A stretch of DNA of 32,000 bases from contig NZ_CP011034.1 in NCBI RefSeq assembly GCF_001465295.1, positions 30,001-62,000 on the forward strand. Direction: 5' to 3'. Under the pieces are notes generated by a model. It was not told the DNA's origin. It saw only the letters and a list, made by a program, of their open reading frames with translations, and searched no databases. The position numbers and the translations under genes were made by a program. This stretch comes from Pseudoalteromonas translucida KMM 520. GTDB taxonomy: Bacteria; Pseudomonadota; Gammaproteobacteria; Enterobacterales; Alteromonadaceae. Positions 10,173-26,889 of this stretch are shown here, one piece after another; position 1 is the first letter of the stretch; each line of letters begins with the position of its first letter.

Positions 10173-10204
10173 AAAGCCCGAATCTAACGATTCGGGCTTT
10201 TTTA
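10173..10204 (+). terminator. rrn operon rho-independent terminator
   Basis: GCCCGAATC-taac-GATTCGGGC followed by TTTTTT, immediately after the 5S gene. Confidence 0.85.
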
Positions 10205-10463
10205 CGTCTGCAGAAAAGTGGAGTTTGGGTGAATAATACACACTCAATATACACTAAAGTCTCTCATGTAGGTCGGGAGAGCAACGTGACTACCGACGAT
10301 AAAGAGCTTTAAAATAGCTAAGGAGACTGTAGCCTTTAACGAGTCGTTGTATTCTCAAGCTAGAAATTCATTTTTAAAATCATTTTGTTGCAATTTCACT
10401 GTTGGTTTAATAAGTGACCTGTGTAAAACTACTGAGGTTAATTCAGTAAATCAGGTGACATGA

Positions 10464-11396
10464 ATGTCAAATATTAAAGCTTGGAAACTTATCAGCCTGT
10501 TTTGTTTGTTTGCGGTGCTTATGGGTTGCCAATCTAAAGAAGAGCAACTGCAAAAAACAATTCAAGAATCGATTAAAAAAGCGGAGGTTGAGCTATCACA
10601 GCTAGGTACTGCGCTTGATAATGGTAGTTTGCGAAATGCATTATTACTTAAAGAATACGGTGTTCAGCTTAAAAATCAGCAACCAGAACTTTCAAAAGTT
10701 GTTGATGTAATTACCCTTGACGCCACTCGTCAAGGTGCACTTTACAGTGGTTTAACACAGCGACTTAAAGATATTAAGGGCACCTACCTTATTCCTCCTT
10801 ACGAAGATACTTTGCACAGTATTGATTTATTGCGCGAAGCTGCAAAGCCTACGCTATTCTCAGATGCGTTAACCGATCCTATTAATATGCTTGCGGATAT
10901 GTCTAAAGGCAATTTAGCGCGTATTGGTGCTATTAGTCAGCAAGCTGAAGGCGCTGGAGTTGGTAACCAAATGGTGGGTAATCCTAATTATGGTAACTGG
11001 CAATCTAACAGCAATGGTACTAGCTTTTGGCAATGGTACGGTATGTATCGTATTTTAGGGGATGTATTTAATCGTGTTGAATATGGTAGCTGGAGCCGAG
11101 GTCGTAAATATAGTTATTACAATGACTACGGCCGTTCACGTTACTCAAGCCCAAAACAAATTAAAGCGCAGAGCACGCTAGAAACACGTACGCGTCAATC
11201 ATATCAACGCCAAGGTAAGCAATTTACTAGCCCTTATGCGAGCAAAAAAACGGGGGCGTCAGGCTTAAGCCGAAGTAGCTACACACCACCTAAAAGTCGC
11301 AGTAGTTATTCTCGTTCGAGTAGTTACAGTAATAACTCGGGCTCAGTTCGTAACAGTGGTAGTAGAACCTCTCGTGGCGTGAGCCGTGGTAAGTAA
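10464..11396 (+). CDS. Lipoprotein with helical N-domain and Ser/Arg/Tyr-rich low-complexity tail; possibly a distant YjfM/DUF1190 analogue
   Basis: 310 aa with a signal peptide plus lipobox (AVLMGC). AGGTG SD 6 nt upstream of ATG 10464. The C-terminal ~140 aa is compositionally biased (SRSSYTPPKSRSSYSRSSSYSNNSG...). First gene of a tightly spaced plus-strand cluster. Confidence 0.75.
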   Translation: MSNIKAWKLISLFCLFAVLMGCQSKEEQLQKTIQESIKKAEVELSQLGTALDNGSLRNALLLKEYGVQLKNQQPELSKVVDVITLDATRQGALYSGLTQRLKDIKGTYLIPPYEDTLHSIDLLREAAKPTLFSDALTDPINMLADMSKGNLARIGAISQQAEGAGVGNQMVGNPNYGNWQSNSNGTSFWQWYGMYRILGDVFNRVEYGSWSRGRKYSYYNDYGRSRYSSPKQIKAQSTLETRTRQSYQRQGKQFTSPYASKKTGASGLSRSSYTPPKSRSSYSRSSSYSNNSGSVRNSGSRTSRGVSRGK

Positions 11397-11422
11397 AAGA
11401 ATAAAGTTGGAGTTAGAGTAAT

Positions 11423-12322
11423 ATGTATGAATTTAATGGAATAACTATGTGGTCACTGCAAGCGCTGGCGATTGATTTTGCAATTATTGTTTTGCTGTTT
11501 GTGAGTCTTAAATATATTAAGGGTTGGGTATCTAACCTGCATGCTAATGATGAAATTACTGAGCGTGATAACTTTGCATTTGGTATTAGTTTTGCTGCGG
11601 GTTTAGTTGCATTGGCGATTGTGCTTACTGGTGTGAGCAGCGGTGCTTTTGCGGTGTCATTACAGCAAGAAGCTCTGCAAATGCTGGGCTATGGTGCACT
11701 GGCTATTTTACTCATTAAGCTTGGGCATTTCTTTCAAGATAAAGTTGCGCTACGTAAAGTGAGCTTACATAGCGAAATAGTTAAAGGTAACGTGACAGCG
11801 GCTGTTATCGACTTTGGCCACGTTGTTAGTGTCGCCATTGTAATTCGCTCGGCATTGCTCTGGGTGGCTACCGACGGCTGGCATGGTTTACCTATTGTGG
11901 TTGCAGCTTTTGTTATTGGTAGCCTAGTGTTGTTGGTAGTGAGCCAATATCGCGTACAGCTGTTTAAGCGCACCAATAAAAGTGGTGATTGCTTACAACA
12001 AGCAATTATTGATGGCAACTTAGCTGTGGGTATTCGTTATGCCGGTTTTTTAATTGGCAGCGCATTAGCCATTACCGCAGCAACGGGTATTGCGCCTTAC
12101 GTAGCCGATAATATTAATGCGAGTTTGTTGTACTGGGCTATTAGTGCAGTAGTTAGTTTACTGGTATTTATTATTTTGCATTTAGTGACAATTAAAATAA
12201 TTTTATCTGGCTGTGATATTTCAGATGAAGTGAACCGTCAAAAAAATGTGGGTGTAGCCGCGATTTCTGCAGCGTTATCATTTGCGGTAGGTATAACTAT
12301 GGCAACACTATTAGGCGCATAA
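11423..12322 (+). CDS. Polytopic membrane protein with repeated DUF350 (YjfL-like) units
   Basis: 299 aa and very hydrophobic. It carries three DUF350-like signatures (ERDNFAFGISFAAGLVALAIVLTG; VKGNVTAAVIDFGHVVSVAIVI; IDGNLAVGIRYAGFLIGSALAI). Lies 26 nt after the lipoprotein gene and 4 nt before the next gene. Confidence 0.7.
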   Translation: MYEFNGITMWSLQALAIDFAIIVLLFVSLKYIKGWVSNLHANDEITERDNFAFGISFAAGLVALAIVLTGVSSGAFAVSLQQEALQMLGYGALAILLIKLGHFFQDKVALRKVSLHSEIVKGNVTAAVIDFGHVVSVAIVIRSALLWVATDGWHGLPIVVAAFVIGSLVLLVVSQYRVQLFKRTNKSGDCLQQAIIDGNLAVGIRYAGFLIGSALAITAATGIAPYVADNINASLLYWAISAVVSLLVFIILHLVTIKIILSGCDISDEVNRQKNVGVAAISAALSFAVGITMATLLGA

Positions 12323-12326
12323 TCGA

Positions 12327-14048
12327 GTGTCATCAACTATAAAAAGCCCAAGTAAATTTAGTTTACTTGGGCACGATATTTTACTTATTACCGTTATGGC
12401 TGTACTCGCAGGGTGTGGCCTTATTTATGAATACTTACTGTCTCATTATGCGGGGCGGGTACTTGGCTCAGTAGAAAGCGCTATTTATGCGATGATCGGC
12501 ACTATGATAGTCGCAATGGGCATTGGCGCATTTTTAGCGCGTTGGTTTAAAGATGCATTTACCGCCTTTGCTTGGCTAGAAAGTATAATTGCTTTGATTG
12601 GCATGGGCTGTATTTTGGCCATTGCCGGCGTTATTGCTGTGAGTTATTCGCTGCCGCATATGTTTTCGAGTATTTTTAATTTGCCTCCCGACGTAGTACT
12701 CAATGGCTATGTATTTCAAAAGCTACAAGAGTGGTCGCGTTTTTTACCCTATGTATTTGGCCTTATACTTGGCTTGTTTATTGGTATGGAAATACCGCTT
12801 ATCGCGCGTATTCGTCAGCATGTTTATGGTCGTTTTTTAGAGAATAACGCAGGAACAATTTATGGTGCCGACTATATAGGTGCCGGAATTGGCGCGGCTA
12901 TTTGGGTTAGTATTATGTTGTCTATGCCCATAATGCAAGCAGCTGCGTGGACTGCGCTGTTTAATATAATTGCAGGGCTTGCCTTTTTATGGCGGTATCA
13001 TACCTATGTACGCTTTGCAAAGCTGTTATTAGCGTGTCACCTGTTATTGCTAGTATTATTTGCGTTTATATTGGTATTAGGCAGTAGCTGGATGGATAAC
13101 TTGAGCAATGTTTTATACAAAGACAAGGTTATTTATTCCCAAGCCACTAAATATCAACATGTGGTACTAACCGAGCGGTTAAGTAAAAATCAGCCACAGC
13201 CAATAACCGATTTATACTTAAATGGGCGCTTACAGTTTTCTAGTGTTGATGAGCAAATATATCATTCAATGTTAGTTTACCCGGCTATGTTGGCGTCAAA
13301 TCGTCATGAGCGGGTACTGATCATTGGTGGTGGCGATGGGCTGGCACTTAGAGATGTTTTAAAGTGGCCGGTGAGCAAAGTAACCCTGATTGACCTTGAT
13401 GGGCAATTGCTTAATTTGTTTGGCCATAAAGACGCTGAGTTTACTTCGCCTGAAGATATTAGCCAGCGGTTGTTAAGCCTTAATAGCAAATCTATGCATG
13501 ATCCGCGTGCAGATATTATTGTTGGTGATGCCTTTTTAGAAGTTGAAAAGTTGCTCGACCAGGCAAAGCAATTTGATACTATTTTAATTGATTTACCGGA
13601 CCCTAATCATCCCGATTTAAATAAAATGTATAGTGATTACTTTTATAATCATGTACGCCAATTACTAGCACCAGATGGAGCAATGGCGGTGCAGTCAACC
13701 TCGCCTTATCATGCTAAAAAAGCATTTTTAAGTATTGCTAAAACGGTTAAAGCGGCTGGATTTGAATATGTAGAACAGTATCAACAAAACATACCTTCAT
13801 TTGGGCAATGGGGCTGGACTATAGCTACTAAAATGGGGCAATCGGCTAGTGGGCGAATTAACGATGTAACCGCAATGCCGATACCATCAAGGTGGATCAG
13901 TAAAGAATATTTACTGGCTAGTTTTGTTTTTCCGAATAATTATTTTGAACATGTTAAAGATATTGAAGTCAATAGGTTAGGCTCTGGTCAACTGTACGAT
14001 TATTACCGTACAGCATGGCAAATAGAAAGCGAGTTGTATAAAAACTAA
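12327..14048 (+). CDS. Membrane-anchored spermidine-synthase-like polyamine aminopropyltransferase (about 7 TM segments + SpeE-like domain)
   Basis: 573 aa with a GTG start 4 nt after the previous stop. The N-terminal ~255 aa has about 7 hydrophobic helices. The C-terminal domain has SpeE-family motifs (YLNGRLQFSSVDEQIYHSML, VLIIGGGDGLALRDVL, ILIDLPDPNHP, LAPDGAMAVQSTSP). Confidence 0.85.
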   Translation: MSSTIKSPSKFSLLGHDILLITVMAVLAGCGLIYEYLLSHYAGRVLGSVESAIYAMIGTMIVAMGIGAFLARWFKDAFTAFAWLESIIALIGMGCILAIAGVIAVSYSLPHMFSSIFNLPPDVVLNGYVFQKLQEWSRFLPYVFGLILGLFIGMEIPLIARIRQHVYGRFLENNAGTIYGADYIGAGIGAAIWVSIMLSMPIMQAAAWTALFNIIAGLAFLWRYHTYVRFAKLLLACHLLLLVLFAFILVLGSSWMDNLSNVLYKDKVIYSQATKYQHVVLTERLSKNQPQPITDLYLNGRLQFSSVDEQIYHSMLVYPAMLASNRHERVLIIGGGDGLALRDVLKWPVSKVTLIDLDGQLLNLFGHKDAEFTSPEDISQRLLSLNSKSMHDPRADIIVGDAFLEVEKLLDQAKQFDTILIDLPDPNHPDLNKMYSDYFYNHVRQLLAPDGAMAVQSTSPYHAKKAFLSIAKTVKAAGFEYVEQYQQNIPSFGQWGWTIATKMGQSASGRINDVTAMPIPSRWISKEYLLASFVFPNNYFEHVKDIEVNRLGSGQLYDYYRTAWQIESELYKN

Positions 14049-14060
14049 TAAAACATGGTT

Positions 14061-14107
14061 GACATAATATGTCGGCCATGAGAATCTTAACTCAGACATA
14101 ATATGTC
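14061..14107. promoter_or_regulatory. Two identical 13-bp palindromes GACATAaTATGTC (14061-14073, 14095-14107); candidate operator pair
   Basis: These are exact repeats 34 bp apart centre-to-centre, in the 79-nt gap upstream of the yjfI-like gene. The first is embedded in TTGACA (14059-14064). With flanks, the two sites are mirror images: TTGACATAATATGTC and GACATAATATGTCAA. Confidence 0.5.
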
Positions 14108-14127
14108 AAACGACAAAAGGCAGAGAC

Positions 14128-14541
14128 ATGGAATTAAATGAACTTTCAATAAAATTAGCTTCTTTTGAAACAGAAGGCGCTAACTTTGAGTCTTTCTTGA
14201 TTGCTAATCCAGGTGAGCAAGATGTATTACAAGTCATTGTTGATGAAAATGATGAGCTTCCAATTTTTGTTACGCAAACACAAGAGCAGTTATTATGCAT
14301 TAGCTACTTGTTTGACGAAGACGAAGTTAAGCAGGAATTACGTAACGAGTTAAACGAAACATTACTACGTTTAAACGTGCCAATTCCATTAAGTGCATTT
14401 GCTAAAATCGATAATAAATACGCGATTTTTGGTGCACTGTCGGTAAATTCATCATTAGATGACATTACCCACGAACTAGTGACATTAGCCGATAATGCTA
14501 TTGATGCACTAGAAGCCGTGACCATGTATTTAAACGATTAG
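14128..14541 (+). CDS. yjfI: YjfI-like protein (DUF2170)
   Basis: 137 aa and acidic. The segments QLLCISYLF and PLSAFAKIDNKYAIFGALS..SSLDDI..EL..L resemble my memory of E. coli YjfI. It lies immediately upstream of a PspA-family gene, as in the E. coli yjfIJK order. Confidence 0.65.
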   Translation: MELNELSIKLASFETEGANFESFLIANPGEQDVLQVIVDENDELPIFVTQTQEQLLCISYLFDEDEVKQELRNELNETLLRLNVPIPLSAFAKIDNKYAIFGALSVNSSLDDITHELVTLADNAIDALEAVTMYLND

Positions 14542-14565
14542 TAGCGATTTAGTGGAGTTAAGATT

Positions 14566-15258
14566 ATGAGTATTTTAAAAAAATTATTTACAGCAGTACG
14601 TGGCGGCGCTCGCGAAGCAGGCGAAGCAATTGTAGATAAAAACGGTATCCGTATTTTTGAGCAAGAAATTGCAGACGCACAAAATGCTTTGCACCGTGCT
14701 AAAAAGAGCCTAACAGAAGTTATGGCGAAAGAAATGCAAACTAAGCGTAAAATTAGCGCTGTAGATGCTTCTATTGCTGAGCATGAAGCTTATGCTGGCC
14801 AAGCGCTGGAGAAAGGTAATGAAGCTTTAGCATTAGAAATTGCAGAAAAAATTGGCGAGTTTGAAGCTGAAAAAGCAGAGAACGAACAAGTATTATCTGG
14901 TTTTAGCAATCACATTGTAGCGCTTAAACAGCAAGTTAAAGAAGCTGAAAAGTCGATTAAAGAAAACCAACGCCAGCTAACTATGGTTAAAACCACAGAA
15001 AGCGTGCAACAAGCTACCATGGCTGTAAACAGCACATTAAACACTAACAGCTCGTCTATGACATCGGCTCGTCAATCGCTTGAGCGTATTAAGCAACGCC
15101 AGCAAGACCGTCAAGATCAGTTAGGTGCAGCTAAAGAGCTAGAAGCCGATGTAAACGGCGACGATTTAAAAGCGAAAATGGCAGAAGCCGGAATTGGTGA
15201 CAGTAGTCCAAAAAGTGCTGATATTTTAGCGCGTATTAAAGCCAAGCAAAATAGCTAA
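14566..15258 (+). CDS. yjfJ: PspA/IM30 family protein (YjfJ type)
   Basis: 230 aa. The opening MSILKKLFTAVRGGAREAGEAIVD..GIRIFEQEIADA, the long coiled-coil body and the C-terminal DLKAKMAEAGIG..S..ADILARIKAKQ parallel E. coli YjfJ. GGAG SD upstream of ATG 14566. Confidence 0.85.
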   Translation: MSILKKLFTAVRGGAREAGEAIVDKNGIRIFEQEIADAQNALHRAKKSLTEVMAKEMQTKRKISAVDASIAEHEAYAGQALEKGNEALALEIAEKIGEFEAEKAENEQVLSGFSNHIVALKQQVKEAEKSIKENQRQLTMVKTTESVQQATMAVNSTLNTNSSSMTSARQSLERIKQRQQDRQDQLGAAKELEADVNGDDLKAKMAEAGIGDSSPKSADILARIKAKQNS

Positions 15259-15276
15259 TAATTACGTTCATATTTT

Positions 15277-15313
15277 AAAAAGGTAACCAGGCTTTAGCTT
15301 AGTTACCTTTTTT
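15277..15313 (+). terminator. Rho-independent terminator/attenuator between the PspA-like and YjfK-like genes
   Basis: AAAA-AGGTAAC-(14-nt loop)-GTTACCT-TTTTT, 19 nt after the yjfJ-like stop. Confidence 0.6.
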
Positions 15314-15333
15314 GCTTAGAAGGCAGCCTTCCT

Positions 15334-15972
15334 ATGTTTAATTTTTTCAAATCTAAAAAAGAGCCAGAGCGTCAGCTTAATCATGCCAGTGAGCTTAAAA
15401 AAGGTGACATGTTTACCGTCATCGATTCATTTGCTTATCCTGCGTGGTTAAAAGGGCAAACTCTTCGCGTTATTGATATACAAACTTATCAGTATCAACA
15501 CAGTAGTGATACTGAGTTTGTGTTGGAAAGTGACAGCGGCCAAGTGGTATTTTTACAAATAGAGCAAGAAGATGGCGAGCAATGGGCTAACTTTTCTATA
15601 AAAGTACAACGTGATGAAGTAGAAGATATATTTGGCCTTGATCAGTTTGCGCGTATTTTTGATGAAGAGTCGTTAACGCATATCACAGTGCAAAATATAC
15701 CAGAGCGTTTTACGCAGTTTTTAGCTAACAGCTATCAGCAAAGCGAATCGCCATTTGTGTGTTATTTTCATAATAAAGACTATCGCAATCAAGCTCTTCC
15801 ACGTTATGAGCAAGAAGGTGGTGAGCTGTGTGAAATGATTTGTTTAGAGTCTGATGATAAAGGCTTTGGTTTAAATATTGAGATTTGGGATGGTGGCGAA
15901 ACCGAAGTCTCGCTTACCTTAACGCGACCAATTACCGACATTGTTGACTTGTTTCCAGGAGACGCTAAGTGA
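15334..15972 (+). CDS. yjfK: YjfK-like protein (DUF2491/DUF4178-type)
   Basis: 212 aa. The N-terminal LKKGDMF..ID...Y....L.G..L.V.DIQTY.Y.....EFVLESDSGQVVFLQIEQEDGEQW pattern resembles the beta-rich domain found next to PspA/DUF350 genes. Its position after yjfJ matches E. coli. The family call comes from memory and synteny only. Confidence 0.55.
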   Translation: MFNFFKSKKEPERQLNHASELKKGDMFTVIDSFAYPAWLKGQTLRVIDIQTYQYQHSSDTEFVLESDSGQVVFLQIEQEDGEQWANFSIKVQRDEVEDIFGLDQFARIFDEESLTHITVQNIPERFTQFLANSYQQSESPFVCYFHNKDYRNQALPRYEQEGGELCEMICLESDDKGFGLNIEIWDGGETEVSLTLTRPITDIVDLFPGDAK

Positions 15973-16289
15973 GTGATGCTAAAGAAAAGTGGTTACGCCA
16001 AGAGCAGGCAGTGCGTGCCACGCAAATGGCATTTGATCTAAGTAGCGAAGTACAAAAGTCGATAAAAAAGCAAGCGATTGATCAAGAACTAACACCCTCA
16101 GATATGATACGCAAAATACTTGGTTTAGATGTAAAGTCGAAAAAAACCCGACAGCGTTTATCGTTTAATTTAAACGACGATGAAATAGCACAGCTTGCAA
16201 GCCGTTTTGATGTACAAAGTGACGACAAGCGCGTAGTAAAGCAACGTGTTGCAGAACTTTTGATTGCTCATACAAAAAAAATTAAGTAG
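15969..16289 (+). CDS. Small basic protein with two ribbon-helix-helix-like units (putative DNA-binding)
   Basis: 106 aa with a GTG start overlapping the yjfK-like stop (GTGA) and AGGAG 7-8 nt upstream. Two segments have a beta-strand/helix/helix pattern: MAFDLSSEVQKSIKKQAIDQELTPSDMIRKILGL and RLSFNLNDDEIAQLASRFDVQSDDKRVVKQRVAELL. The fold assignment is inference. Confidence 0.6.
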   Translation: MSDAKEKWLRQEQAVRATQMAFDLSSEVQKSIKKQAIDQELTPSDMIRKILGLDVKSKKTRQRLSFNLNDDEIAQLASRFDVQSDDKRVVKQRVAELLIAHTKKIK

Positions 16290-16344: not shown

Positions 16345-16530
16345 GTGAATATAATTTTAATTGCTTACTTACTAATTTTTGCATTATTTGGTACTGCGGC
16401 AAGCTACTTTGTGCGTTTTATTTATGCGTATTGGGTGCTTAATAAAATGCCAATGCACTATATTATTAAGGCGGGGATTTGTTTAGTAATGGTGGTAATT
16501 ATTTCAGCGTTAATCCCATATTTAGGATAA
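16345..16530 (+). CDS. Hypothetical small two-TM membrane protein
   Basis: 61 aa with two hydrophobic helices. GTG start with a weak SD. The last codons lie inside a hairpin. Coding status is uncertain. Confidence 0.35.
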   Translation: MNIILIAYLLIFALFGTAASYFVRFIYAYWVLNKMPMHYIIKAGICLVMVVIISALIPYLG

Positions 16531-16555: not shown

Positions 16556-16960
16556 TTATTTTATTTCAAAAGGTTGGCATTGCTGATTAATACACAGTGA
16601 TTGTACTTCAAGCACTGATGGGCAGTCAGTTAAGCCTTGTGCCTTATTTAGCGTGTTTTCTTGTGCTGTTATTTGCTGTGCAATCTGCTCAGCTTGTTCT
16701 TGTTGGGTATTAAGTGTTGAGTACACAGCATACTTACTTGGTCCACCGCACGCACGCGCACCTACTTCAAGCACTTTACATTGAAAGCTAGCTGTACAGC
16801 TATTGTTACTAACAATATCGTTAAGTTGACTATTAAGACTCGCTAAACTCGTTCCGTGATCATTGCTTGACGATGTTGTGCTAGCACAGCCGCTCAGTAA
16901 CAAAATACTAGTAGCAATACTTACAACTGATAGTTTAATTGCTGATGGCAAACAACTCAT
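16556..16960 (-). CDS. 6-Cys lipoprotein, paralogue B (uncharacterised family)
   Basis: Start chosen at ATG 16960 (MSCLPS...) with AAGGA SD. Lipobox LLLSGC. The C-terminal domain C-x5-QC-x8-RACGGPSKYAVYST...C...C-x4-C is shared with the upstream gene. Confidence 0.8.
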   Translation of the reverse strand: MSCLPSAIKLSVVSIATSILLLSGCASTTSSSNDHGTSLASLNSQLNDIVSNNSCTASFQCKVLEVGARACGGPSKYAVYSTLNTQQEQAEQIAQQITAQENTLNKAQGLTDCPSVLEVQSLCINQQCQPFEIK

Positions 16961-16970
16961 AACCTTATCC

Positions 16971-17483
16971 TTAAAATACACTTACTGCTGAGCCTTCAAG
17001 TTTAACACATTTATTTTCTACACACTGCGTGCTTGGCGCAGTTAAATGCTGGCAAATACTGACCATTTGATTTTGTGCATTATAGTTACTTTCAAAGGTA
17101 GTGATTTTTTTACTTAATGCAGTGACTTGCTCAGTTGTTGCTGTTGTCGTTGAATACACTACATAACTACTTGGGCCGCCACATGCTCGGCTACCTACAG
17201 CTTCTACTTGGCACTGCGTACTGCTATCACATTGTTTATTAGCAATGAGCGTATTTAATTCATTTTTAGCTGCTTTAATGTCATCAAGAGTAACTGCTTT
17301 CATGGCAGTATTTGATAGTTTTTCGGCTGGGGTATGTAATTCTGCTTTGTTACTTTTTTGCAGTTGTTGCTGCGATGGCGCTGTTGTTTCGCTGGCAGTT
17401 GTTTTTTCTGTTTCTGCTACGGGGTTATCTAAACAAGCGGTTAAACACAGTGGTAAAAATATAGCTAGCAATGTAGTACGCAT
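16971..17483 (-). CDS. 6-Cys lipoprotein, paralogue A (uncharacterised family)
   Basis: Start chosen at ATG 17483 (MRTTLLAIFLPLCLTAC, lipobox LTAC) with AGGA SD, not the track's longer ORF reaching 17567. The domain is C-x5-QC-x8-RACGGPSSYVVYST...C...C-x4-C. There is a 10-nt gap to paralogue B. Confidence 0.8.
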   Translation of the reverse strand: MRTTLLAIFLPLCLTACLDNPVAETEKTTASETTAPSQQQLQKSNKAELHTPAEKLSNTAMKAVTLDDIKAAKNELNTLIANKQCDSSTQCQVEAVGSRACGGPSSYVVYSTTTATTEQVTALSKKITTFESNYNAQNQMVSICQHLTAPSTQCVENKCVKLEGSAVSVF

Positions 17484-17596
17484 AACAAATCCTGATAGTG
17501 GTGAATTATTCACCACTATCATACACTGTGCATTTGTTACGGCAATAAAAACTCTATTATCAAGCAATTAAAGCCGTTATTAATTACTGTGAATAT

Positions 17597-19264: not shown

Positions 19265-19855
19265 ATGATTAAGCCATTCTCACAAGCGTGTGAAAATAAT
19301 AAACAGCCTATTTTAGCGCAGTTAAAATCTGTGTTAGCGAATGCCAAAACGGTGCTCGAAGTAGGCTCAGGTACAGGTCAGCACAGCGTGTATTTTGCTC
19401 AGCAGTTGCCGCATTTACAATGGTATAGCAGCGACAGAGCGATTAATCATGAGGGTATTAATTTATGGCACCGCGAGGTTAATTTAACCAATTTACATGC
19501 TCCCCTTGAACTTGACTTAAACAATGCGTGGCCAATTGATAAAGTGGATGCTATTTACACGGCTAATACTTTTCATATTGTAAGCTGGCAACTAGTAGAG
19601 CATTTTTTTGCGGGTGTAAAACAGCATTTAAATGACCAAGGCATAGTATGCATTTACGGGCCATTTAAATATAAAGGCGAGTTTACTAGCCAAAGTAATA
19701 ATGACTTTAATCGCTTTTTAATAGAGCGCGACCCACTTAGTGGTATTAGAGATTTTGCAGCAGTTGAGCTATTAGCAAAGCAAGCAGGGCTAACGTTACT
19801 AAGTGATATAGCCATGCCTGCTAATAATCAGTTACTGATTTTTAAACGGCAGTAA
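19265..19855 (+). CDS. DUF938-type class I SAM-dependent methyltransferase-like protein
   Basis: 196 aa from ATG 19265. The FSQACENNKQPIL opening and VLEVGSGTGQH (motif I) fit DUF938 proteins. The 3' end overlaps the convergent gene by 24 nt. Confidence 0.75.
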   Translation: MIKPFSQACENNKQPILAQLKSVLANAKTVLEVGSGTGQHSVYFAQQLPHLQWYSSDRAINHEGINLWHREVNLTNLHAPLELDLNNAWPIDKVDAIYTANTFHIVSWQLVEHFFAGVKQHLNDQGIVCIYGPFKYKGEFTSQSNNDFNRFLIERDPLSGIRDFAAVELLAKQAGLTLLSDIAMPANNQLLIFKRQ

Positions 19856-20971
19856 TGCGCTGCATTGATCTTTATAAATATTAATATGCTGGCGTTCACG
19901 TTTTAAGTAATCGTTAATTGCGTTGCTAAAGTCGTTATCAATTATATGGTGAGCTGAGTAGGTTAATACTGGGGCAAAACCGCGTGCTATTTTATGCTCA
20001 CCTTGTGCCCCTGAATGAAAACAGCTGAGGTTATGCTTTATTGCAAACTCAATCCCTTGGTAATAGCATAGCTCAAAGTGCAGTGAATCTACCTCTTCGC
20101 TTGCCCCCCAATACCGCCCGTACAGTGTATCTTCTCCTATTAGGCTAAGGGTTGCGGCAATAATAGCGTCCTCTTTTTTGGCTAGCATAATGACTAGCTT
20201 TTCGGCCATTAGCGCATGTAAAAGCTTAAAAAAGGGCATGTTTAAATAGCCTAAGTGGCCAGAGCGTTTTAAATAAGTACGTTGATAGAATTCGCAAAAT
20301 AGCTGCATAATTTCAGGCGTAATTTGCGTCCCTTGCAGCCATTCAATAGTAATGTTTTGTTGAGTTATTTTGCTACGTTCTTTTTTTAGTGATTTGCGCT
20401 TACGAGAATTAAGCGTATCTAAAAAATCGTCAAAGCATGTAAAGCCTTTATTAAACCACTGAAATTGCACACCCACTCTAAGCATAGCGTGCTGCAGTGT
20501 GAGCTGTGTTGCTTGGGCTAAGTTGCAAAAATTAACGTGCCAGCCAGACCAGCCTTGCTCTTTGCTGTGCAGGTTTAGTAACTCTGTGATGTATTCATAC
20601 ACTAAGCTAGGGTTACTATGCTCTATAGCAATACGGCTACCTTCAATAGGGCAAAATGGCACACCGCATAGCCATTTAGGATAGTACTCTAAGCCATGTT
20701 TCTCGTATGCTTCTGCCCAGGCCCAATCAAACACATATTCACCGTAAGAGTGGCTTTTTAAATAGCCCGGTGCCAGCGCAATAATATTTTCGCCCTCAAA
20801 AATAGCTAAGTGATAAGGCTGCCAACCACTTTGTTGAGTAACACACTGACTTTGCTCTAATGCGTATAAAAAAGCATGTTGGGTAAATGGCTCGTCGCCA
20901 AACAAGCGTTGCCATTGCGCTCGCTCTATTTGATTAATACTACTAAACCATTGATGCGAAAATGTCGCCAT
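19832..20971 (-). CDS. FemAB-like / BioF2-like GNAT-fold N-acyltransferase (DUF482 family)
   Basis: 379 aa. The N-terminal W..L......F..H.FL.ALE.S..V....GW.P.HL pattern and overall length match my memory of the family usually annotated as 'peptidoglycan biosynthesis/recognition' GNAT. There is a 2-nt gap after the hydrolase gene. Confidence 0.7.
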   Translation of the reverse strand: MATFSHQWFSSINQIERAQWQRLFGDEPFTQHAFLYALEQSQCVTQQSGWQPYHLAIFEGENIIALAPGYLKSHSYGEYVFDWAWAEAYEKHGLEYYPKWLCGVPFCPIEGSRIAIEHSNPSLVYEYITELLNLHSKEQGWSGWHVNFCNLAQATQLTLQHAMLRVGVQFQWFNKGFTCFDDFLDTLNSRKRKSLKKERSKITQQNITIEWLQGTQITPEIMQLFCEFYQRTYLKRSGHLGYLNMPFFKLLHALMAEKLVIMLAKKEDAIIAATLSLIGEDTLYGRYWGASEEVDSLHFELCYYQGIEFAIKHNLSCFHSGAQGEHKIARGFAPVLTYSAHHIIDNDFSNAINDYLKRERQHINIYKDQCSALLPFKNQ

Positions 20972-20973
20972 TA

Positions 20974-22365
20974 CTACTTACCTTGTGCGTGTTCTACGTT
21001 TTTTATAAAGGTGCTTATTTGTTTTTTAAGCTCAGGAAAAAAGGGGTTATAGGTTAATCGTTGTAAGGTGGGGTATTGCTTTAAGTTAGCAGCTGTACGT
21101 TCTCCAAATTGCGGCGTTTTTGTGGTTTTACAGGTTTTATATAACTTTTCGCCGCCAATAAAACTGCCGCAATTACGATAAGAAGCGTTAATACCATAAT
21201 GCGGATTTTGTGGTGAGTTAACAATGGCAATATGCGATATACCATGGATTTTTAGACATGCCTCGCTGGCACACTGCGGATTTAATACTCTGTAATCTGC
21301 TGCAAAATTTGGGGGTAAAATAGCGCTGCTACCATAAAGCACTAAGGTATCGAGTTTTTTATAGCGACTTAAATTAGTATTATGTAATGCATTTAATAAT
21401 TTAAGGGTAGCATGGCTATCAATTGTCGCGTCAATATCGCTTATTACGCTAAATACAGGCAATGCCAAAGCTGGGCGCTTACTTAAATTTTTAATGCTAA
21501 CCAATGACATTGCATCATGTGAGGCTGCCGCGGCATTAAGTGGAAACGACTCATACTTGGCAAAATCAACATCGGCGTCTTTATCTATCCAATTTAAAAA
21601 AGGGATTAAATCAAGCCACTTGGCCATCCAACCTTGTTTATTATGCGGCTCAGAGCCCGGTGAAAACAACATAAGCGCCGTTATTTTTGATGAAAGCGCT
21701 TGCGTGATTGCATAGTCTATAAGTAGTGCCGCCCCCGTAGAGTAGCCCCCTAAAATAACCTCATCAAAGTCTTGTGCTGTGCGCTCTATAGCGTAACGCA
21801 CAGCTTGCTGCCATTGCTGTAGGTCTACATCTTGTAACGCACTAGCAGCGCTGCCGTGGCCAGGTAATAAAATAGTGCGTACGGTATAACCTTGCTGGTA
21901 ATACACTTGGGCTAAATCGTGATAGGTAAAAGGGGAGTCGGTAAGGCCGTGCACGAGTAATACCGCTTTTTTATTTTGTGGGTGTTTTAACTCAAAAGGA
22001 GCAATAATATCGGCAATAGTGGGATTAGGCTTACGGCTGCCTTGATTAACTAGTTGCTGATACGTTTGAGTAAACACAGGACATGGCATAGCAGCGCGAG
22101 GATTAGCTACGCTAATATACTGATACGCATGATTTAGGTAGCTGTTAAAAGGGGCACGCGCTTGGTAATCAAAATGCGCTTGGTGGTGCTCCTTTGTATA
22201 GCGTAATAGGCCTTGCTGTTTACTCTTTTTAATAAACTCAAAATCGTTTGCCTGCGTAATACAATTTTCAGCGACAGCTAAGTGAGGAAAAAAGCCAAGC
22301 ATACAAGTTAAAAATATTTTTAAAAATACACTATTATTGTTCATAAACCACTGCATATTGAGCAA
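20974..22365 (-). CDS. Secreted alpha/beta-hydrolase-fold protein
   Basis: Has an HG oxyanion region (LLVHGLTDSP), the nucleophile elbow GGYSTG (GxSxG), and an N-terminal signal-like segment ...FLKIFLTCMLGFFPHLAVA. The start is uncertain: TTG 22365, ATG 22356 or ATG 22344. All three overlap the kinase stop at 22334. Confidence 0.8.
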   Translation of the reverse strand: MLNMQWFMNNNSVFLKIFLTCMLGFFPHLAVAENCITQANDFEFIKKSKQQGLLRYTKEHHQAHFDYQARAPFNSYLNHAYQYISVANPRAAMPCPVFTQTYQQLVNQGSRKPNPTIADIIAPFELKHPQNKKAVLLVHGLTDSPFTYHDLAQVYYQQGYTVRTILLPGHGSAASALQDVDLQQWQQAVRYAIERTAQDFDEVILGGYSTGAALLIDYAITQALSSKITALMLFSPGSEPHNKQGWMAKWLDLIPFLNWIDKDADVDFAKYESFPLNAAAASHDAMSLVSIKNLSKRPALALPVFSVISDIDATIDSHATLKLLNALHNTNLSRYKKLDTLVLYGSSAILPPNFAADYRVLNPQCASEACLKIHGISHIAIVNSPQNPHYGINASYRNCGSFIGGEKLYKTCKTTKTPQFGERTAANLKQYPTLQRLTYNPFFPELKKQISTFIKNVEHAQGK

Positions 22366-25125: not shown

Positions 25126-25581
25126 TTACAATGGTAATTGTTTTTTGCTAAAAGACTGCTTTAATACCACGGTTGATTCTATATTAGCGATACAGCTTAA
25201 GCTCCCTAATTGATGCTTAACAAACTGCTCATAGCTTTCTAAATCATGCGCAATTATTTTTAGTAAATAGTCGTAACTTCCCGATATTACCGAACACTCT
25301 AGCACATGGGTGAGCTTTTCTACGTGTTGTTCAAATTGCAGGGCAGCACTGGCCGAATTTTGATTTAAACGTACAAATGCATACACCAAAACGTTTAGTT
25401 TAAGTGCCTTAGGGTTAATAGCAGCGTGGTAGCCGGTAATGATGTTAGCTTGTTCTAGCTTTTTAATTCGTCTAAGGCAGGGCGTATCTGAGAGGCTAAT
25501 ATGACTGGCAAGATCTGCAACAGACATTCTAGCGTTGGTTTGTAAGGCTATGAGCAATTGCTGATCTTTTTTATCGAGCAT
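25126..25581 (-). CDS. Lrp/AsnC family transcriptional regulator
   Basis: 151 aa. N-terminal HTH (LDKKDQQLLIALQTNARMSVADLASHISLSDTPCLRRIKKLE) and a C-terminal RAM/AsnC_trans_reg-type domain. Divergent from the 25719 operon. Confidence 0.9.
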   Translation of the reverse strand: MLDKKDQQLLIALQTNARMSVADLASHISLSDTPCLRRIKKLEQANIITGYHAAINPKALKLNVLVYAFVRLNQNSASAALQFEQHVEKLTHVLECSVISGSYDYLLKIIAHDLESYEQFVKHQLGSLSCIANIESTVVLKQSFSKKQLPL

Positions 25582-25718
25582 ATATAGATTCTTATTAATT
25601 ATTTTTATATTTGTAGTGATTATTGCTAATGATGTTAATAATTACTAATTTTTTTAGCGCTTTACCCTCATTAAACTCTGTTAGCATTTAGTGATAACTA
25701 TAATAACAGGAAACCATA

Positions 25719-26888
25719 ATGAGCACCCATACAGCCATTTTCGATCGATGGATAAGAGGCACCTTCCCACAGATAAATAGCGAGCTTGAGCAACTTTACT
25801 GGCAACAAGATGATAAAGCCAATGTAGAGGGAATAGGAGAGCCTTTAAAGCAGCAGTTAAAAGATGAAGGTAACGCGCTAATAAGTAATTTATTAGCGGA
25901 GGGGAATACCGATGAGGGGTTTGATAGCGCGTTTGATTTACTCGGTAATGTAGGACTTTTTATGGCGGCGTGTCGTCGTCATGAAATTACCGAGCCAAGC
26001 CGTGAGACCACATCGCCACTGGTCGAGGCGTCGGCATTGGCAATGCACATAGGTGCTTCTATTGGAGTAACGCCGCGCTTTGCGACCGCTCATTTAACCA
26101 CCCACAATAAAGCGTTAAATGGCACGTATAAACGCTTTACTAATTTACCCGACGAAAAATTATTTATTGATTACAACACCCAAGGTATTTTGGCATATAA
26201 ACGCGCCAGCGATGCATTATTAAAAATATTGCCATTAGGTATTTCGCACCCCACCTGTGCCGAGCTATTAAAAGTTGCAAAACAAGCGCTAATAGATGTA
26301 ATTGAATCGAATAATGCACTTTATACTCAGCTAGACACCGAGCGCTTTTTTAATTGTGTGCGCCCTTATTATAAACCGCATCGAGTAGGTAATGAGATAT
26401 ACAGAGGTGCTAATGCGGGAGATTTTGCCGGCATAAACGTTATCGATATGCTACTTGGGCTGTGTAGTGCCAACGAGCCAAGTTATTCACAAATGCTGGT
26501 GGATAAATTTTTATATATGATGCCAGAAGATCAGCAAATATTGCGCGAAGCAATGCGTATGCAAAGCTTTATGGATGACTTTTTACAGGCGCAGCAATAT
26601 AAAGACAGTGACTGGTTTAAATACCACGCAAAGCTATTTATTCAGGTGTGTAAACTACATGGTGACACCGCAATCGGTCATCACAATCAATTGGTCGAAA
26701 AATTTATTGCGCAACCGTCAAAGCAAATGCAGCAGCAACATATGAGTAAAGTAACAGCTAGTGGCCCACCATTACATGTTTTGCTCGATTCGTTAGAAAA
26801 ACTCCGTGATAAACGTGCCAGTGCCAAGCGCGACGATATAAAAACACGTTACGACGATATAAACTTGCTAAAACAGTGGATTAAATAA
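25719..26888 (+). CDS. IDO/PrnB-superfamily haem-dioxygenase-like protein (DUF1864-type)
   Basis: 389 aa. RPYYKPHRVGNEIYRGANAGDFAGINVIDMLLGL resembles PrnB RPFYEPIRVGG..Y.GPGA and IDO ...GGSAGQSS.... FLYMMPEDQ resembles IDO RRYMPPAH. The late GHHNQLVEKF is positioned like a proximal His. AGGAA SD. The call is from memory of these families only. Confidence 0.6.
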   Translation: MSTHTAIFDRWIRGTFPQINSELEQLYWQQDDKANVEGIGEPLKQQLKDEGNALISNLLAEGNTDEGFDSAFDLLGNVGLFMAACRRHEITEPSRETTSPLVEASALAMHIGASIGVTPRFATAHLTTHNKALNGTYKRFTNLPDEKLFIDYNTQGILAYKRASDALLKILPLGISHPTCAELLKVAKQALIDVIESNNALYTQLDTERFFNCVRPYYKPHRVGNEIYRGANAGDFAGINVIDMLLGLCSANEPSYSQMLVDKFLYMMPEDQQILREAMRMQSFMDDFLQAQQYKDSDWFKYHAKLFIQVCKLHGDTAIGHHNQLVEKFIAQPSKQMQQQHMSKVTASGPPLHVLLDSLEKLRDKRASAKRDDIKTRYDDINLLKQWIK

Positions 26889-26889
26889 G

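Follow-up and report, generated by a model that had tools for sequence, protein, structure and literature searches.

A Pseudoalteromonas gene cluster orthologous to the Shewanella SO_3762-68 operon type, with PspA-type and aminopropyltransferase-like genes

Known systems related to the cluster

Operons that place a PspA-type membrane-repair pair beside a membrane-anchored polyamine-type enzyme are already known from comparative genomics. Ravi et al. (2024, mSystems, PMC11237479) defined a 'second major group' of CesT/Tir-PspA operons, reported its recurrent coupling with polyamine enzymes of the ATP-grasp or SpeE type, proposed a monitoring of polyamine concentration and gave an exact seven-gene string for Shewanella SO_3765. 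This string (SO_3762-SO_3768) encodes, in order, LipoSIG+Ctha_1186+low-complexity, YjfL/DUF350, TM+Spermine_synth, CesT_Tir-DUF2170, PspA, DUF4178 and RHH proteins. The locus described here (genes g1 to g7), found in a 32,000-nucleotide stretch of the Pseudoalteromonas translucida KMM 520 genome (the window), has the identical order and domains and is a Pseudoalteromonas ortholog of this operon type. A preceding sequence-only reading of the window had taken the system for an undescribed one, which the published string contradicts, and had supposed that no member has an experimentally defined role. Relatives do have experimental data, as outlined below; the operon type itself is described computationally only, in Shewanella oneidensis (PMC11237479).

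The yjfIJKLMC cluster of Escherichia coli encodes homologous YjfI (32% identity to g4, 3e-10), YjfJ (38% to g5, 9e-37) and DUF350 (YjfL, hhalign 93.8% with g2) proteins, a lipoprotein whose basic Ser/Arg/Gly tail shares an SRGG[FY]G-like motif with g1, and a polyamine-type enzyme. However, this enzyme (YjfC) is, like YgiC, a peptide-spermidine ligase, soluble and of the ATP-grasp type, and not an aminopropyltransferase, the lipoprotein has a DUF1190 ecto-domain and a tail ending in GG instead of GK, DUF2491 takes the place of DUF4178 as third cytoplasmic protein, the DUF350 protein is single (4 TM), and a g7-type gene is absent. Profile comparison detected no homology of g1 with DUF1190 or of g6 with DUF2491; thus, of the earlier idea that both clusters permute the same parts list, only the YjfI, YjfJ and DUF350 portion holds. 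The yjfIJKL genes have a reported connection with the thermal adaptation of E. coli (thermotolerant strains).

The bac operon of P. aeruginosa (PA3732-PA3729 and following) shares the dyad of DUF2170 protein (BacA) and PspA-like protein (BacB); the crystal structure of BacA (PDB 8Q8O) has a CesT-like fold, and mutations in bac affect the envelope, biofilms and the behaviour under osmotic shock (PMC10948618). In contrast, the bac partners are of the band-7/flotillin type, DUF350, SpeE and the tail lipoprotein are missing, and g4 reaches only 63.8 bits against the BacA equivalog cutoff of 300. Like the canonical phage-shock system pspF-pspABCDE, the locus encodes an ESCRT-III-type PspA/IM30 protein, whose N-terminus forms an amphipathic helix and whose presumed role is the maintenance of the inner membrane, but its putative regulator is the small g7-type protein and not a sigma-54 activator; PspB, PspC and PspF are not encoded within the 32-kb window. 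Finally, the actinobacterial DUF4178-DUF2617-DUF4247-DUF350-SpeE cluster (Mycobacterium tuberculosis Rv2597-Rv2601 type; an adhesin function is reported for Rv2599) contains the DUF350 and 7-TM SpeE core plus an exported or anchored partner, which in Gordonia (DUF4247) has a GK end like that of g1; it differs in lacking the YjfI-YjfJ dyad and in having an ecto-domain of another family.

Gene content of the Pseudoalteromonas locus

The seven ORFs, all on the forward strand within positions 10464-16289, were confirmed at their previously proposed coordinates, with gaps of 26, 4, 79, 24, 75 and -4 nt (Table 1). A strong intrinsic terminator beyond the end of the 5S rRNA (10160) is the 5' boundary, parting the cluster from the upstream rRNA operon. 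On the other side, it is uncertain whether the 61-aa ORF, kept only in the closest relative (L002), belongs to the cluster.

Table 1. Coordinates (window positions) of genes and sequence elements of the cluster
Feature	Position	Strand	Description
rRNA-operon intrinsic terminator	10176..10203	+	GCCCGAATC-TAAC-GATTCGGGC, then T6; sequence read
Leader block	10385..10432	+	conserved with nearest relative L002 (alignment)
g1	10464..11396	+	lipoprotein, 310 aa; signal peptide, LMGC lipobox, helical ecto-domain, basic tail
g2	11423..12322	+	DUF350 (YjfL-family) membrane protein, 299 aa; Pfam 8.8e-36
g3	12327..14048	+	TM-SpeE fusion; 7-TM domain ~10-262, aminopropyltransferase domain ~263-573
g3-g4 gap cis-element	14054..14107	+	twin perfect 13-nt palindromes GACATAATATGTC
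g4	14128..14541	+	DUF2170/YjfI/BacA-family protein, 137 aa; Pfam 9.2e-41
g5	14566..15258	+	PspA/IM30 protein, YjfJ type, 230 aa; Pfam PspA_IM30 1.1e-39
Intrinsic terminator or attenuator	15277..15313	+	A5GGUAAC...GUUACCU6, directly 3' of g5
Small hairpin	15319..15331	+	GAAGGCAGCCUUC; overlaps Shine-Dalgarno of g6
g6	15334..15972	+	DUF4178 protein, 212 aa; Pfam 7.8e-07, 29.8 bits vs GA 25
g7	15969..16289	+	small basic protein, 106 aa; overlaps g6 by 4 nt
Two-TM ORF	16345..16530	+	61 aa; 55 nt past g7

The cluster comprises two sub-modules, (i) g1-g3, of the envelope, and (ii) the cytoplasmic g4-g6, for membrane maintenance, followed by g7 as a putative small regulator. The profile searches and sequence features bore out five of the earlier family assignments, those of g1 to g5. 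The g1 product is indeed a lipoprotein with a low-complexity tail (Ser/Arg/Gly/Tyr-rich, net charge +20, C-terminus ...SRTSRGVSRGK) and an ecto-domain of the 'Ctha_1186' type of Ravi et al.; the protein gave no family match in Pfam or NCBIfam profile searches. In the case of g2 the DUF350 family was right, but not the triple structure, since the protein consists of two 4-TM modules (about 8 TM, from two Pfam stretches and hydropathy).

The YjfI-like g4 product also matches PDB 8q8o (5.8e-11), a solved DUF2170 homologue with a CesT/T3SS-chaperone-like fold (PMC10948618). The g5 product, correctly placed in PspA/IM30, covers positions 1-219 of the 220 of this profile and has the N-terminal amphipathic segment MSILKKLFTAVRG; its family and the phenotypes of relatives (P. 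aeruginosa bac, E. coli yjfIJKL) suggest a PspA-type function. It is not a canonical PspA equivalog, as for TIGR02977 it reaches only 13 of the 243 bits required. The g6 product had been considered YjfK-like (DUF2491), an assignment rejected by profile comparison with E. coli YjfK (4% probability). It is instead an acidic (net -21) DUF4178 protein, predicted to be cytoplasmic because it carries neither a signal peptide nor a TM segment, and shares homology with the N-terminal domain of DUF4178-TM-tail fusions from Firmicutes (hhalign 89.4%). The g7 product, whose family closes 31 of 44 related loci, may be a DNA-binding regulator, for which Ravi et al. (PMC11237479) use the label RHH; its best Pfam hints are NikA-like (E=0.021) and FitA-RHH (E=0.2), and neither a PDB profile search nor a Foldseek search with a model of pLDDT 72.5 gave a match.

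The aminopropyltransferase domain and its possible acceptors

The g3 product is, as proposed, a 7-TM and SpeE-like fusion (Spermine_synth, 1.8e-31; NCBIfam NF002956/PRK03612, 616 bits against a cutoff of 472). Q277, D308, Y312, H313, GGGDG334-338, D356, D401 and D422-x-x-D425-P are invariant across 28 diverse homologs, and every residue that binds dcAdoMet or acts in catalysis is kept. The best alignment of the protein with a solved SpeE reaches 2.5e-28, and its AF2 model (pLDDT 90.4, seven TM helices) resembles solved SpeE/thermospermine synthases (Foldseek TM-score 0.75-0.80), the best matches being long-substrate aminopropyltransferases. A class-1b AdoMetDC gene with an intact ESH motif adjoins the operon in 14 loci, which makes dcAdoMet the likely donor; the 32-kb window contains no AdoMetDC gene.

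Several observations point to a catalytic domain on the outer side of the membrane. The N-terminus and loops 2-3, 4-5 and 6-7 of TM-SpeE proteins hold 7.7 K+R, against 1.4 in the alternate loops, and the positive-inside pattern expected for an external catalytic domain is found in 105/105 sequences. All eight amine oxidases encoded directly 3' of TM-SpeE carry Tat signals, and the partner proteins are lipoproteins or have ecto-tails. The 310-aa catalytic domain is devoid of Cys in 41/41 Gram-negative-tier members (about 1% Cys in the TM domain, 1.7% in YjfI); however, this is weak evidence for the outside topology, because the cytoplasmic PspA and g7 proteins are Cys-poor too. We infer that the g3 catalytic domain faces the periplasm.

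One could regard g3 as an ordinary membrane-anchored synthase that converts free amines into spermidine, norspermidine or some longer polyamine; either this product itself would stabilise the membrane or the PspA module would sense it. Ravi et al. (PMC11237479) read the enzyme in this way, which agrees with their proposed monitoring of polyamine concentration, with the fully conserved canonical active site, with the NF002956 equivalog name ('polyamine aminopropyltransferase') and with the linkage of polyamine oxidase and AdoMetDC genes to the operon. We nevertheless consider it unlikely, as the predicted extracytoplasmic site and the Tat-exported oxidases do not suit a cytoplasmic polyamine supply, and the invariant GK tails described below are left unexplained. 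Moreover, such fusions, or the SpdSyn domain alone, reportedly fail to complement an E. coli speE mutant, and their host species are said to be without spermidine.

We favour, with moderate confidence, a reading of the cluster as an envelope aminopropyltransferase module combined with a PspA-type membrane-maintenance module, the operon type of Shewanella SO_3762-68. The 7-TM domain of g3 and/or DUF350 would supply dcAdoMet from the cytoplasm to the periplasmic catalytic domain, by a transfer resembling that of OafA or DltB, and g3 would aminopropylate an envelope-located acceptor instead of free putrescine, thereby changing the surface charge. The role of the YjfI-YjfJ-DUF4178 set would be to stabilise the inner membrane or to remodel it, either where this modification takes place or whenever the same stress acts, and g7 may control g4-g7 via the twin palindromes. 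In OafA/PatA (AT3-SGNH) and DltB-DltD, a polytopic membrane domain takes an activated group from a donor in the cytoplasm and hands it to a transferase domain outside, which modifies envelope polymers. The analogy concerns the mode of working and not homology, and the donor here would be dcAdoMet; to our knowledge trans-membrane transfer from dcAdoMet has never been shown, and we know of no precedent for dcAdoMet outside the cytoplasm, as a periplasmic aminopropyltransferase needs.

A candidate acceptor is suggested by the tails. The terminal G-K is invariant in 40/40 members of the g1 family, in 9/9 Firmicutes DUF4178-TM-ecto-tail proteins and in 42/42 DUF4247 proteins (e.g. ...RGGGSGxGK in Gordonia, resembling g1), with zero entropy at the final two positions and a variable remaining tail, and profile comparison found the ecto-domains of these carriers to be unrelated. 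In 58/81 loci a low-complexity tail protein with a GK end is encoded on the same strand as TM-SpeE and no more than 5 kb from it; none of the 81 loci has one beyond this distance. In a sharpened form of the favoured reading, which we regard as rather unlikely, this C-terminal Lys of g1 would be aminopropylated by g3 to a protein-borne triamine, and in the E. coli-type counterpart YjfC/YgiC would ligate spermidine to the Gly-Gly-COOH end of the DUF1190 tail. YjfM-family (32/32) and YgiB proteins do end in GG beside peptide-spermidine ligases (a sample drawn from Enterobacteriaceae only), the terminal residue fits the chemistry of each enzyme (amine for SpeE, carboxylate for ATP-grasp), and the g1 tail and the predicted g3 catalytic domain occupy the same membrane side. 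Lysines of diatom silaffins bear oligo-propyleneimine chains, but we know of no protein aminopropylation by a SpeE-family enzyme. In addition, YjfC/YgiC are cytoplasmic, yet their proposed substrates are exported. The idea is further weakened by TM-SpeE from 10 GK-less loci (ZnR-DUF4178/amine-oxidase subtype), whose pocket motifs are identical to the others, with no subtype-specific residue in the catalytic domain, which argues for a common acceptor other than the tail.

A ubiquitous acceptor, such as the primary amine of a membrane-lipid head-group (e.g. phosphatidylethanolamine) or peptidoglycan on the external side of the inner membrane, would fit this uniform pocket. It would also suit the fusion of the catalytic domain to a 7-TM domain with conserved intramembrane E85, E155, D182 and N213, and offers a natural tie to PspA-type membrane stress. 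The terminal Lys of g1 would then serve elsewhere, e.g. in L,D-transpeptidase attachment to peptidoglycan, as in Braun's lipoprotein, whose C-terminal Lys is cross-linked to this polymer. Against this proposal, which seems to us improbable, Firmicutes and Actinobacteria, from which we know of no Lpp-type tethering, likewise keep the GK end, and the close tracking of TM-SpeE by the GK tail is not accounted for.

Two sub-modules and their transcriptional punctuation

A census of 80 genomes, with loci anchored on the TM-SpeE gene, yielded 44 loci of a gammaproteobacterial tier and 36 distant ones. In the former the partners were lipoprotein (38), DUF350 (39), YjfI (36), YjfJ (35), DUF4178 (35) and the g7 family (31). 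This supports a coherent, polyamine-enzyme-linked PspA module (35-39/44 loci for the partners from lipoprotein to DUF4178), although not a new one, and agrees with the earlier expectation that both halves co-localise. DUF350 and TM-SpeE occur together in 33/36 distant loci, from at least 8 distant phyla, and the YjfI-YjfJ-DUF4178 set is joined to them in about 80% of the gammaproteobacterial loci. DUF350 plus TM-SpeE is therefore the near-universal, ancient core and the PspA dyad a lineage-specific addition, the reverse of a PspA cluster rewired around SpeE, as previously suggested.

The layout is shared with Shewanella loci having 52-54% TM-SpeE identity. Most Shewanella, however, carry a K+ channel gene (RCK-gated; it follows the last gene in 23/44 close loci), whereas Pseudoalteromonas has the 61-aa TM ORF instead, and the Pseudoalteromonas gaps are enlarged, with twin palindromes and a terminator. 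The first palindrome GACATAATATGTC (14061-14073) has TTGACA before it and is enclosed in a 12-bp hairpin (14054-14080), and the second occupies 14095-14107; five matches were observed against 0.78 expected, and the cores in the gap are kept in three Pseudoalteromonas species. This element may serve g4-g7 as an operator or as an internal promoter. The hairpin 3' of g5 (fold dG -20.2 kcal/mol) keeps its structure in L002 and L003 despite different stem sequences. The leader block may contain the promoter or operator of g1-g3, although a consensus promoter scan performed no better than on shuffled sequence. Because the terminator is conserved and the g3-g4 gap is structured, co-expression of all seven genes cannot be taken for granted, and the Pseudoalteromonas cluster appears to be transcriptionally punctuated as g1-g3 / g4-g5 / g6-g7.

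Taken to the extreme, the structured 79-nt gap with its promoter-like and operator-like elements and the post-g5 terminator could mean that g1-g3 and g4-g7 are unrelated operons, merely adjacent in this genome. Four close loci (L005, L006, L018, L019) have g1-g3 without the PspA half, and the two halves are therefore able to function apart; the YjfI-YjfJ pair likewise occurs without SpeE in E. coli and P. aeruginosa. Yet about 80% of the 44 close loci, in many genera, have the halves side by side and in one direction, with Shewanella gaps of 3-21 nt, and they stay together even where the order is permuted (S-I-J-K-R-channel-L-M in L010, L024 and L039); Verrucomicrobia, moreover, show an independent linkage of a CesT-like and PspA pair to DUF350/TM-SpeE. 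Mere adjacency is thus very improbable.

Taking into account the published string, the possibly new aspects of this locus are the invariant Gly-Lys end of partner tail proteins from three unrelated families, the predicted location of the TM-SpeE catalytic domain outside the cytoplasm, and the punctuation by twin palindromes and a terminator. The strictly conserved Gly-Lys end of the lipoprotein partner offers a concrete experimental handle on this operon type.

Gene content of the cluster and its described relatives

The cluster consists of seven co-directional ORFs, here g1 to g7, with intergenic distances of 26, 4, 79, 24, 75 and -4 nt, exactly as reported in the sequence-only reading. Upstream of it lies a complete rRNA operon, 16S-tRNA-tRNA-23S-5S, which ends with a strong intrinsic terminator; the cluster is therefore an independent unit. 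The g1 protein has a signal peptide, an LMGC lipobox, and a Ser/Arg/Gly/Tyr-rich tail of net charge +20, and forms a single HMM family with the products of the first genes of the Shewanella loci. The g2 protein is a DUF350 protein (Pfam 8.8e-36, in two stretches; about eight hydrophobic segments), in which we found two 4-TM modules and not the three originally proposed. The g3 product (TM-SpeE, a fusion of seven TM helices with an aminopropyltransferase domain) shares 91-93% identity with proteins of P. carrageenovora, P. agarivorans and P. atlantica. Its assignment to the aminopropyltransferases was upheld by the Spermine_synth domain (Pfam 1.8e-31), by the score against the NCBIfam equivalog NF002956/PRK03612 (616.1 bits, above the cutoff of 472) and by a match to the SpeE fold.

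The identities proposed for the two following genes were likewise confirmed. The g4 protein belongs to DUF2170 (Pfam 9.2e-41) and is 32% identical to E. coli YjfI (3e-10); with BacA of P. aeruginosa it shares the DUF2170 family alone (63.8 bits against equivalog NF050185, whose cutoff is 300). Located 24 nt downstream, g5 encodes a PspA_IM30 protein, matching PF04012 over almost its full length (1.1e-39; 136.8 bits vs a gathering score of 33.9; profile positions 1-219 of 220). This protein is closer to YjfJ (38% identity, 9e-37) than to canonical PspA (TIGR02977, 13 bits vs a cutoff of 243), and no match to sequences of solved structures was obtained at E<=0.01. The g6 product, in turn, had been taken for a YjfK-like (DUF2491) protein; it is a DUF4178 protein (Pfam 7.8e-07; 29.8 bits vs GA 25), which aligned with YjfK only at E 0.05 in BLAST and with an hhalign probability of 4.4%. 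For the small basic protein g7, proposed to be RHH-like, the family profile retrieved no significant hit from the PDB (best E=0.087, RpoH), a per-member Pfam scan returned only sub-threshold NikA-like and FitA-RHH hits, and a single-sequence AF2 model found no match in Foldseek. A tandem double-RHH architecture was rejected, with a half-against-half hhalign probability of 6%.

The cluster had been described as a permutation of the parts encoded by E. coli yjfIJKLMC, and homology to these parts was confirmed for YjfI, YjfJ and the DUF350 protein (YjfL vs the g2 family, hhalign 93.8%). YjfK (DUF2491, 3.2e-71) aligned with the g6 family at about 4%, and the YjfM family (DUF1190 lipoproteins) with the g1 family at 2.2%, so that both equivalences are ruled out at the profile level. 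Judged from these comparisons, only half of the E. coli parts list is homologous to the cluster, the remainder being positional analogy. The polyamine-type enzymes also differ: YjfC is an ATP-grasp peptide-spermidine ligase, whereas the cluster encodes TM-SpeE, and neither the window nor any of the 80 census loci listed yielded an ATP-grasp gene.

The operon architecture has already been published and its genes are routinely annotated. The "second major group" of CesT/Tir-PspA operons, as presented by Ravi et al. 2024 (mSystems, PMC11237479), has a gene string identical to that of the cluster: a Ctha_1186-type tail lipoprotein gene in first position (a likeness resting here on the signal peptide, lipobox, tail and shared HMM family), an 8-TM YjfL/DUF350 protein, a 7-TM domain fused to a spermine/spermidine-synthase domain, then CesT/Tir-DUF2170, PspA and DUF4178, with a final RHH transcription factor gene as an optional feature, the position held in our cluster by g7, a putative RHH protein. 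The E. coli-type variant with its ATP-grasp enzyme is covered by the same account, whose authors also point out that polyamine genes are repeatedly coupled to PspA-CesT/Tir operons; for the aminopropylation of "other substrates" they refer to Li et al. 2019. Experimental data also exist for several relatives. YjfC and YgiC of E. coli are peptide-spermidine ligases (RefSeq product name; Pederick et al. 2023, as cited in PMC11762307 and PMC12568646), BacA (DUF2170) of P. aeruginosa has a T3SS-chaperone fold (crystal structure 8Q8O), the bac operon of that species is linked with biofilm, rhamnolipid and osmotic-shock phenotypes, and in thermotolerant evolved strains of E. coli a promoter mutation leads to strong up-regulation of yjfIJKL. 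Because of this published work, the earlier claims that the cluster is undescribed and that none of its members has an experimentally defined role do not hold. The sequence-only reading was thus essentially right in what it observed and partly right in its interpretation; its claim of novelty falls, since the system had already been described.

Cis-elements and neighbouring genes

Positions in the window of the cluster, of its predicted cis-elements and of neighbouring genes
Feature	Position	Remarks
Intrinsic terminator closing the rRNA operon	10176-10203	strong; from a reading of the sequence
Cluster g1-g7	10464-16289	seven co-directional ORFs
C-terminus of g1	11364-11396	...SRGK
Candidate operator or internal promoter, whole element	14054-14107	g3-g4 gap (79 nt)
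Twin perfect 13-nt palindromes GACATAATATGTC	14061-14073 and 14095-14107	34 nt apart
Intrinsic terminator	15277-15313	directly 3' of the pspA-like g5, in the g5-g6 gap (75 nt)
Small hairpin over the g6 Shine-Dalgarno sequence	15319-15331	follows the terminator
61-aa ORF	16345-16530	two hydrophobic segments; 55 nt after g7
Tandem lipoprotein genes	16556-17567 (- strand)	141 and 198 aa; overlapping, convergent on the cluster
FemAB-like, alpha/beta hydrolase and histidine kinase genes	19832-25051 (- strand)	three co-directional genes
AsnC/Lrp-type regulator, PrnB homolog and aminotransferase genes	25126-28014	regulator divergent from the PrnB homolog gene

The palindrome located in the g3-g4 gap gave five matches in a search, against 0.78 expected. 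Its first copy is preceded by a perfect TTGACA and lies inside a 12-bp hairpin (z = -4.4), and the palindrome cores are kept in three Pseudoalteromonas species whose flanking sequences have diverged. The element is a candidate operator or internal promoter, and its palindromes may serve as the operator for g7. Since a sigma-70 consensus scan of the region performed no better than with shuffled sequences, we claim no promoter. The structure of the terminator in the g5-g6 gap is kept in other species, its stem sequences being different. These palindromes, together with the terminator and the hairpin behind it, punctuate the cluster into g1-g3, g4-g5 and g6-g7. The Shewanella loci, with intergenic gaps of 3-21 nt, differ in this respect from the Pseudoalteromonas cluster with its structured 79- and 75-nt gaps.

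The 61-aa ORF behind g7 is kept only in the closest relative (L002) and may encode a small membrane protein or be spurious. The paralogous lipoproteins encoded on the opposite strand share the Cys-rich motif C-x5-QC-x-V-x2-VG-x-RACGGPS-x-Y-x-VYS and have no family match in Pfam or NCBIfam. Further downstream are genes for a FemAB-like protein (500 bits), for an alpha/beta hydrolase, and for a hybrid histidine kinase of 905 aa, whose sensor domains are MASE1 and CHASE, followed by the region encoding a full-length homolog of PrnB (monodechloroaminopyrrolnitrin synthase family, 696 bits) and, after it, a class-V aminotransferase; this last region may represent a small pathway for a tryptophan-derived metabolite.

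Distribution of TM-SpeE loci

Using a 28-sequence TM-SpeE alignment as a query against one genome per GTDB species, we obtained a sample of at least 80 loci, which were annotated by iterated HMM searches starting from the proteins of the window and of E. coli. They fall into a close tier of 44 loci (>=48% identity; Pseudoalteromonas, Shewanella, Colwellia, Psychromonas, Catenovulum and many gammaproteobacterial MAGs) and a distant tier of 36 (<=35% identity; Firmicutes, Actinobacteria, Bacteroidota, Acidobacteriota, Verrucomicrobiota, Calditrichota and Alphaproteobacteria). Among the 44 close loci listed, the partners of TM-SpeE are the lipoprotein in 38, DUF350 in 39, YjfI in 36, YjfJ in 35, DUF4178 in 35 and the g7 family in 31. 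This co-occurrence bears out the proposed linkage between the g1-g3 and g4-g7 halves of the cluster and led us to reject chance adjacency among the loci listed. The gene order found in the window is the usual one in these close loci; three of them have a permuted order, in which TM-SpeE, YjfI, YjfJ, DUF4178, the g7 family and a channel gene precede the g1- and g2-family genes, all still contiguous, and four contain only the g1- and g2-family genes with TM-SpeE.

In the distant loci listed, DUF350 and TM-SpeE are kept together in 33 of 36, and the iterated HMMs detected no window-type YjfI, DUF4178 or g7 family in any of them. A CesT-like and PspA pair is independently linked to DUF350/TM-SpeE in Verrucomicrobia, including Akkermansia. 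The cluster had been interpreted as a PspA system rewired around a SpeE-like enzyme; because the distant loci keep the core without these window-type partners, the gene neighbourhoods are best seen as the opposite, i.e. a DUF350/TM-SpeE envelope core that recruited a PspA dyad.

Other genes are linked to this core among the loci listed. A class-1b AdoMetDC gene with an intact ESH processing motif occurs in 14 loci, and none was found within the 32-kb window; a literature search for speD in Pseudoalteromonas yielded nothing informative. In work by Li and co-workers, membrane-SpdSyn fusions reportedly occurred together with class-1b AdoMetDC, in hosts without spermidine, and failed to complement an E. 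coli speE mutant. A gene for an RCK/TrkA-gated K+ channel (Ion_trans_2) is linked in 33 close and distant loci, directly 3' of the g7-type gene in 23 of the 44 close ones (L004, L007, L012, L014, L016, L022-L041 and others), and is absent from the window and from the two other Pseudoalteromonas loci. A FAD amine oxidase gene is linked in eight loci (L052, L058, L072, L074, L076, L077, L080 and L081). In 19 loci (L003, L010, L014, L021, L028, L035 and others) genes for PAS-GGDEF diguanylate cyclases are no more than a few kb away from the operon, on either strand, which may be coincidental given the abundance of this family.

Enzyme topology and the acceptor question

All of the aminopropyltransferase motifs of g3 (Q277, D308/Y312/H313, GGGDG334-338, D356, D401 and D422-L-P-D425-P) are invariant in 28 diverse homologs, as are the polar residues E85, E155, D182 and N213 of the TM domain. 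The residues for dcAdoMet binding and catalysis (GGGDG, acidic ribose/adenine ligands, D-x-x-D-P) are thus present, also in an alignment with 1iy9. In the AF2 model (pLDDT 90.4, pTM 0.82) seven long TM helices run straight into the SpeE fold. Foldseek comparisons, dominated by the SpeE domain, gave TM-scores of 0.75-0.80 with solved aminopropyltransferases, the top matches being the triamine/agmatine aminopropyltransferase of T. thermophilus and thermospermine synthase.

With an odd number of TM helices, seven, the termini of g3 should be separated by the membrane. Lys and Arg residues, counted in 105 family members, average 7.7 for the N-terminus and loops 2-3, 4-5 and 6-7 taken together, vs 1.4 for the alternate loops; every one of the 105 sequences shows this bias, which persists when the N-terminus is left out (5.2 vs 1.4). 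Helix number and loop charge together predict an N-in orientation in which the catalytic domain is outside. This prediction is matched by two independent observations. The catalytic domain contains no cysteine in 41 of 41 members of the Gram-negative tier (their own TM domain, about 1%; the cytoplasmic YjfI, 1.7%), and all eight amine oxidases encoded after or near TM-SpeE carry Tat (twin-arginine) export motifs, several with a lipobox-like Cys. Searches for the experimental topology of Rv2601 and for the Shewanella locus tags SO_3762-65 gave nothing useful. A catalytic domain placed outside would require a route across the membrane for dcAdoMet, the presumed donor.

What such an enzyme might modify is hinted at by the protein encoded next to it. 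In 58 of the 81 loci listed, a protein with a Ser/Arg/Gly low-complexity tail, adjoining DUF350/TM-SpeE, ends exactly in Gly-Lys, and no ORF with such a tail end was found more than 5 kb from TM-SpeE in any locus listed. Entropy is zero at the last two positions, the preceding tail positions having H of 1-2.8 bits. The terminus is present in 40/40 members of the g1 family, 9/9 Firmicutes proteins and 42/42 Gordonia-type DUF4247 proteins. Its carriers have unrelated ecto-domains, namely the Ctha_1186-type lipoprotein (to which the "lipo2" of Verrucomicrobia is remotely related, 94.8%), a Firmicutes fusion and DUF4247. In the Firmicutes protein a cytoplasmic DUF4178 is joined through a TM helix to an ecto-domain and the tail, which also shows that DUF4178 inside and the tail protein outside belong to one another across the membrane. 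The DUF1190 lipoproteins YjfM (32/32 family members) and YgiB of E. coli, whose genes adjoin those of the peptide-spermidine ligases, end in Gly-Gly, and an SRGG[FY]G-like motif is common to these and to the TM-SpeE-linked tail proteins. The searchable literature yielded no account, for these systems, of the Gly-Lys terminus or of any aminopropylation of proteins.

In each case the terminal residue fits the chemistry of the enzyme: an amine for an aminopropyltransferase, and a glutathione-like glycine carboxylate for a ligase resembling glutathionylspermidine synthetase. This match suggests the tail end as the acceptor in either type of system. The invariant C-terminal Lys of the co-encoded exported protein would then receive the aminopropyl group from the membrane-fused enzyme, a proposal favoured by the invariance of Gly-Lys in three unrelated families beside DUF350/TM-SpeE. 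It also predicts a distinct acceptor pocket in the loci with such tails, and this prediction failed: TM-SpeE proteins from loci lacking the terminus (the ZnR-DUF4178/amine-oxidase subtype) have identical pocket motifs and no subtype-specific residue. For this reason we consider the tail Lys a rather improbable acceptor. Were it nevertheless the substrate, g1 would be modified in our strain, the DUF4178-TM-tail proteins in Firmicutes and DUF4247 in Actinobacteria, with catalysis outside the cytoplasm and dcAdoMet passed on via the 7-TM and DUF350 membrane parts. The E. coli-type yjf and ygi systems would also produce a polyamine-capped basic tail, by ligating spermidine to the Gly-Gly-COOH terminus, and this shared product would account for the presence of two non-homologous polyamine enzymes in one and the same slot. 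The complete scheme, in which the tail Lys replaces putrescine as substrate, catalysis is external, dcAdoMet crosses the membrane and E. coli reaches the same end product, is equally doubtful; if true, protein aminopropylation would be documented in bacteria for the first time, as would a use of dcAdoMet outside the cytoplasm.

Most likely, the cluster encodes an aminopropyltransferase module that modifies the envelope, coupled to a membrane-maintenance module with a YjfJ-type PspA. New here are the invariant Gly-Lys terminus, the predicted outward catalytic domain and the defined cis-elements, which together make the acceptor question directly testable. SpeE homologs fused to membrane domains number in the thousands, mostly alongside DUF350 and frequently alongside a PspA/ESCRT-III protein; the wider question is what they aminopropylate and why they are tied to the membrane-stress machinery. 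If a tail or an envelope component is the acceptor, these systems would represent a new class of envelope modification, with a bearing on antimicrobial-peptide resistance and on the heat tolerance and biofilm phenotypes already tied to relatives of YjfI and YjfJ.
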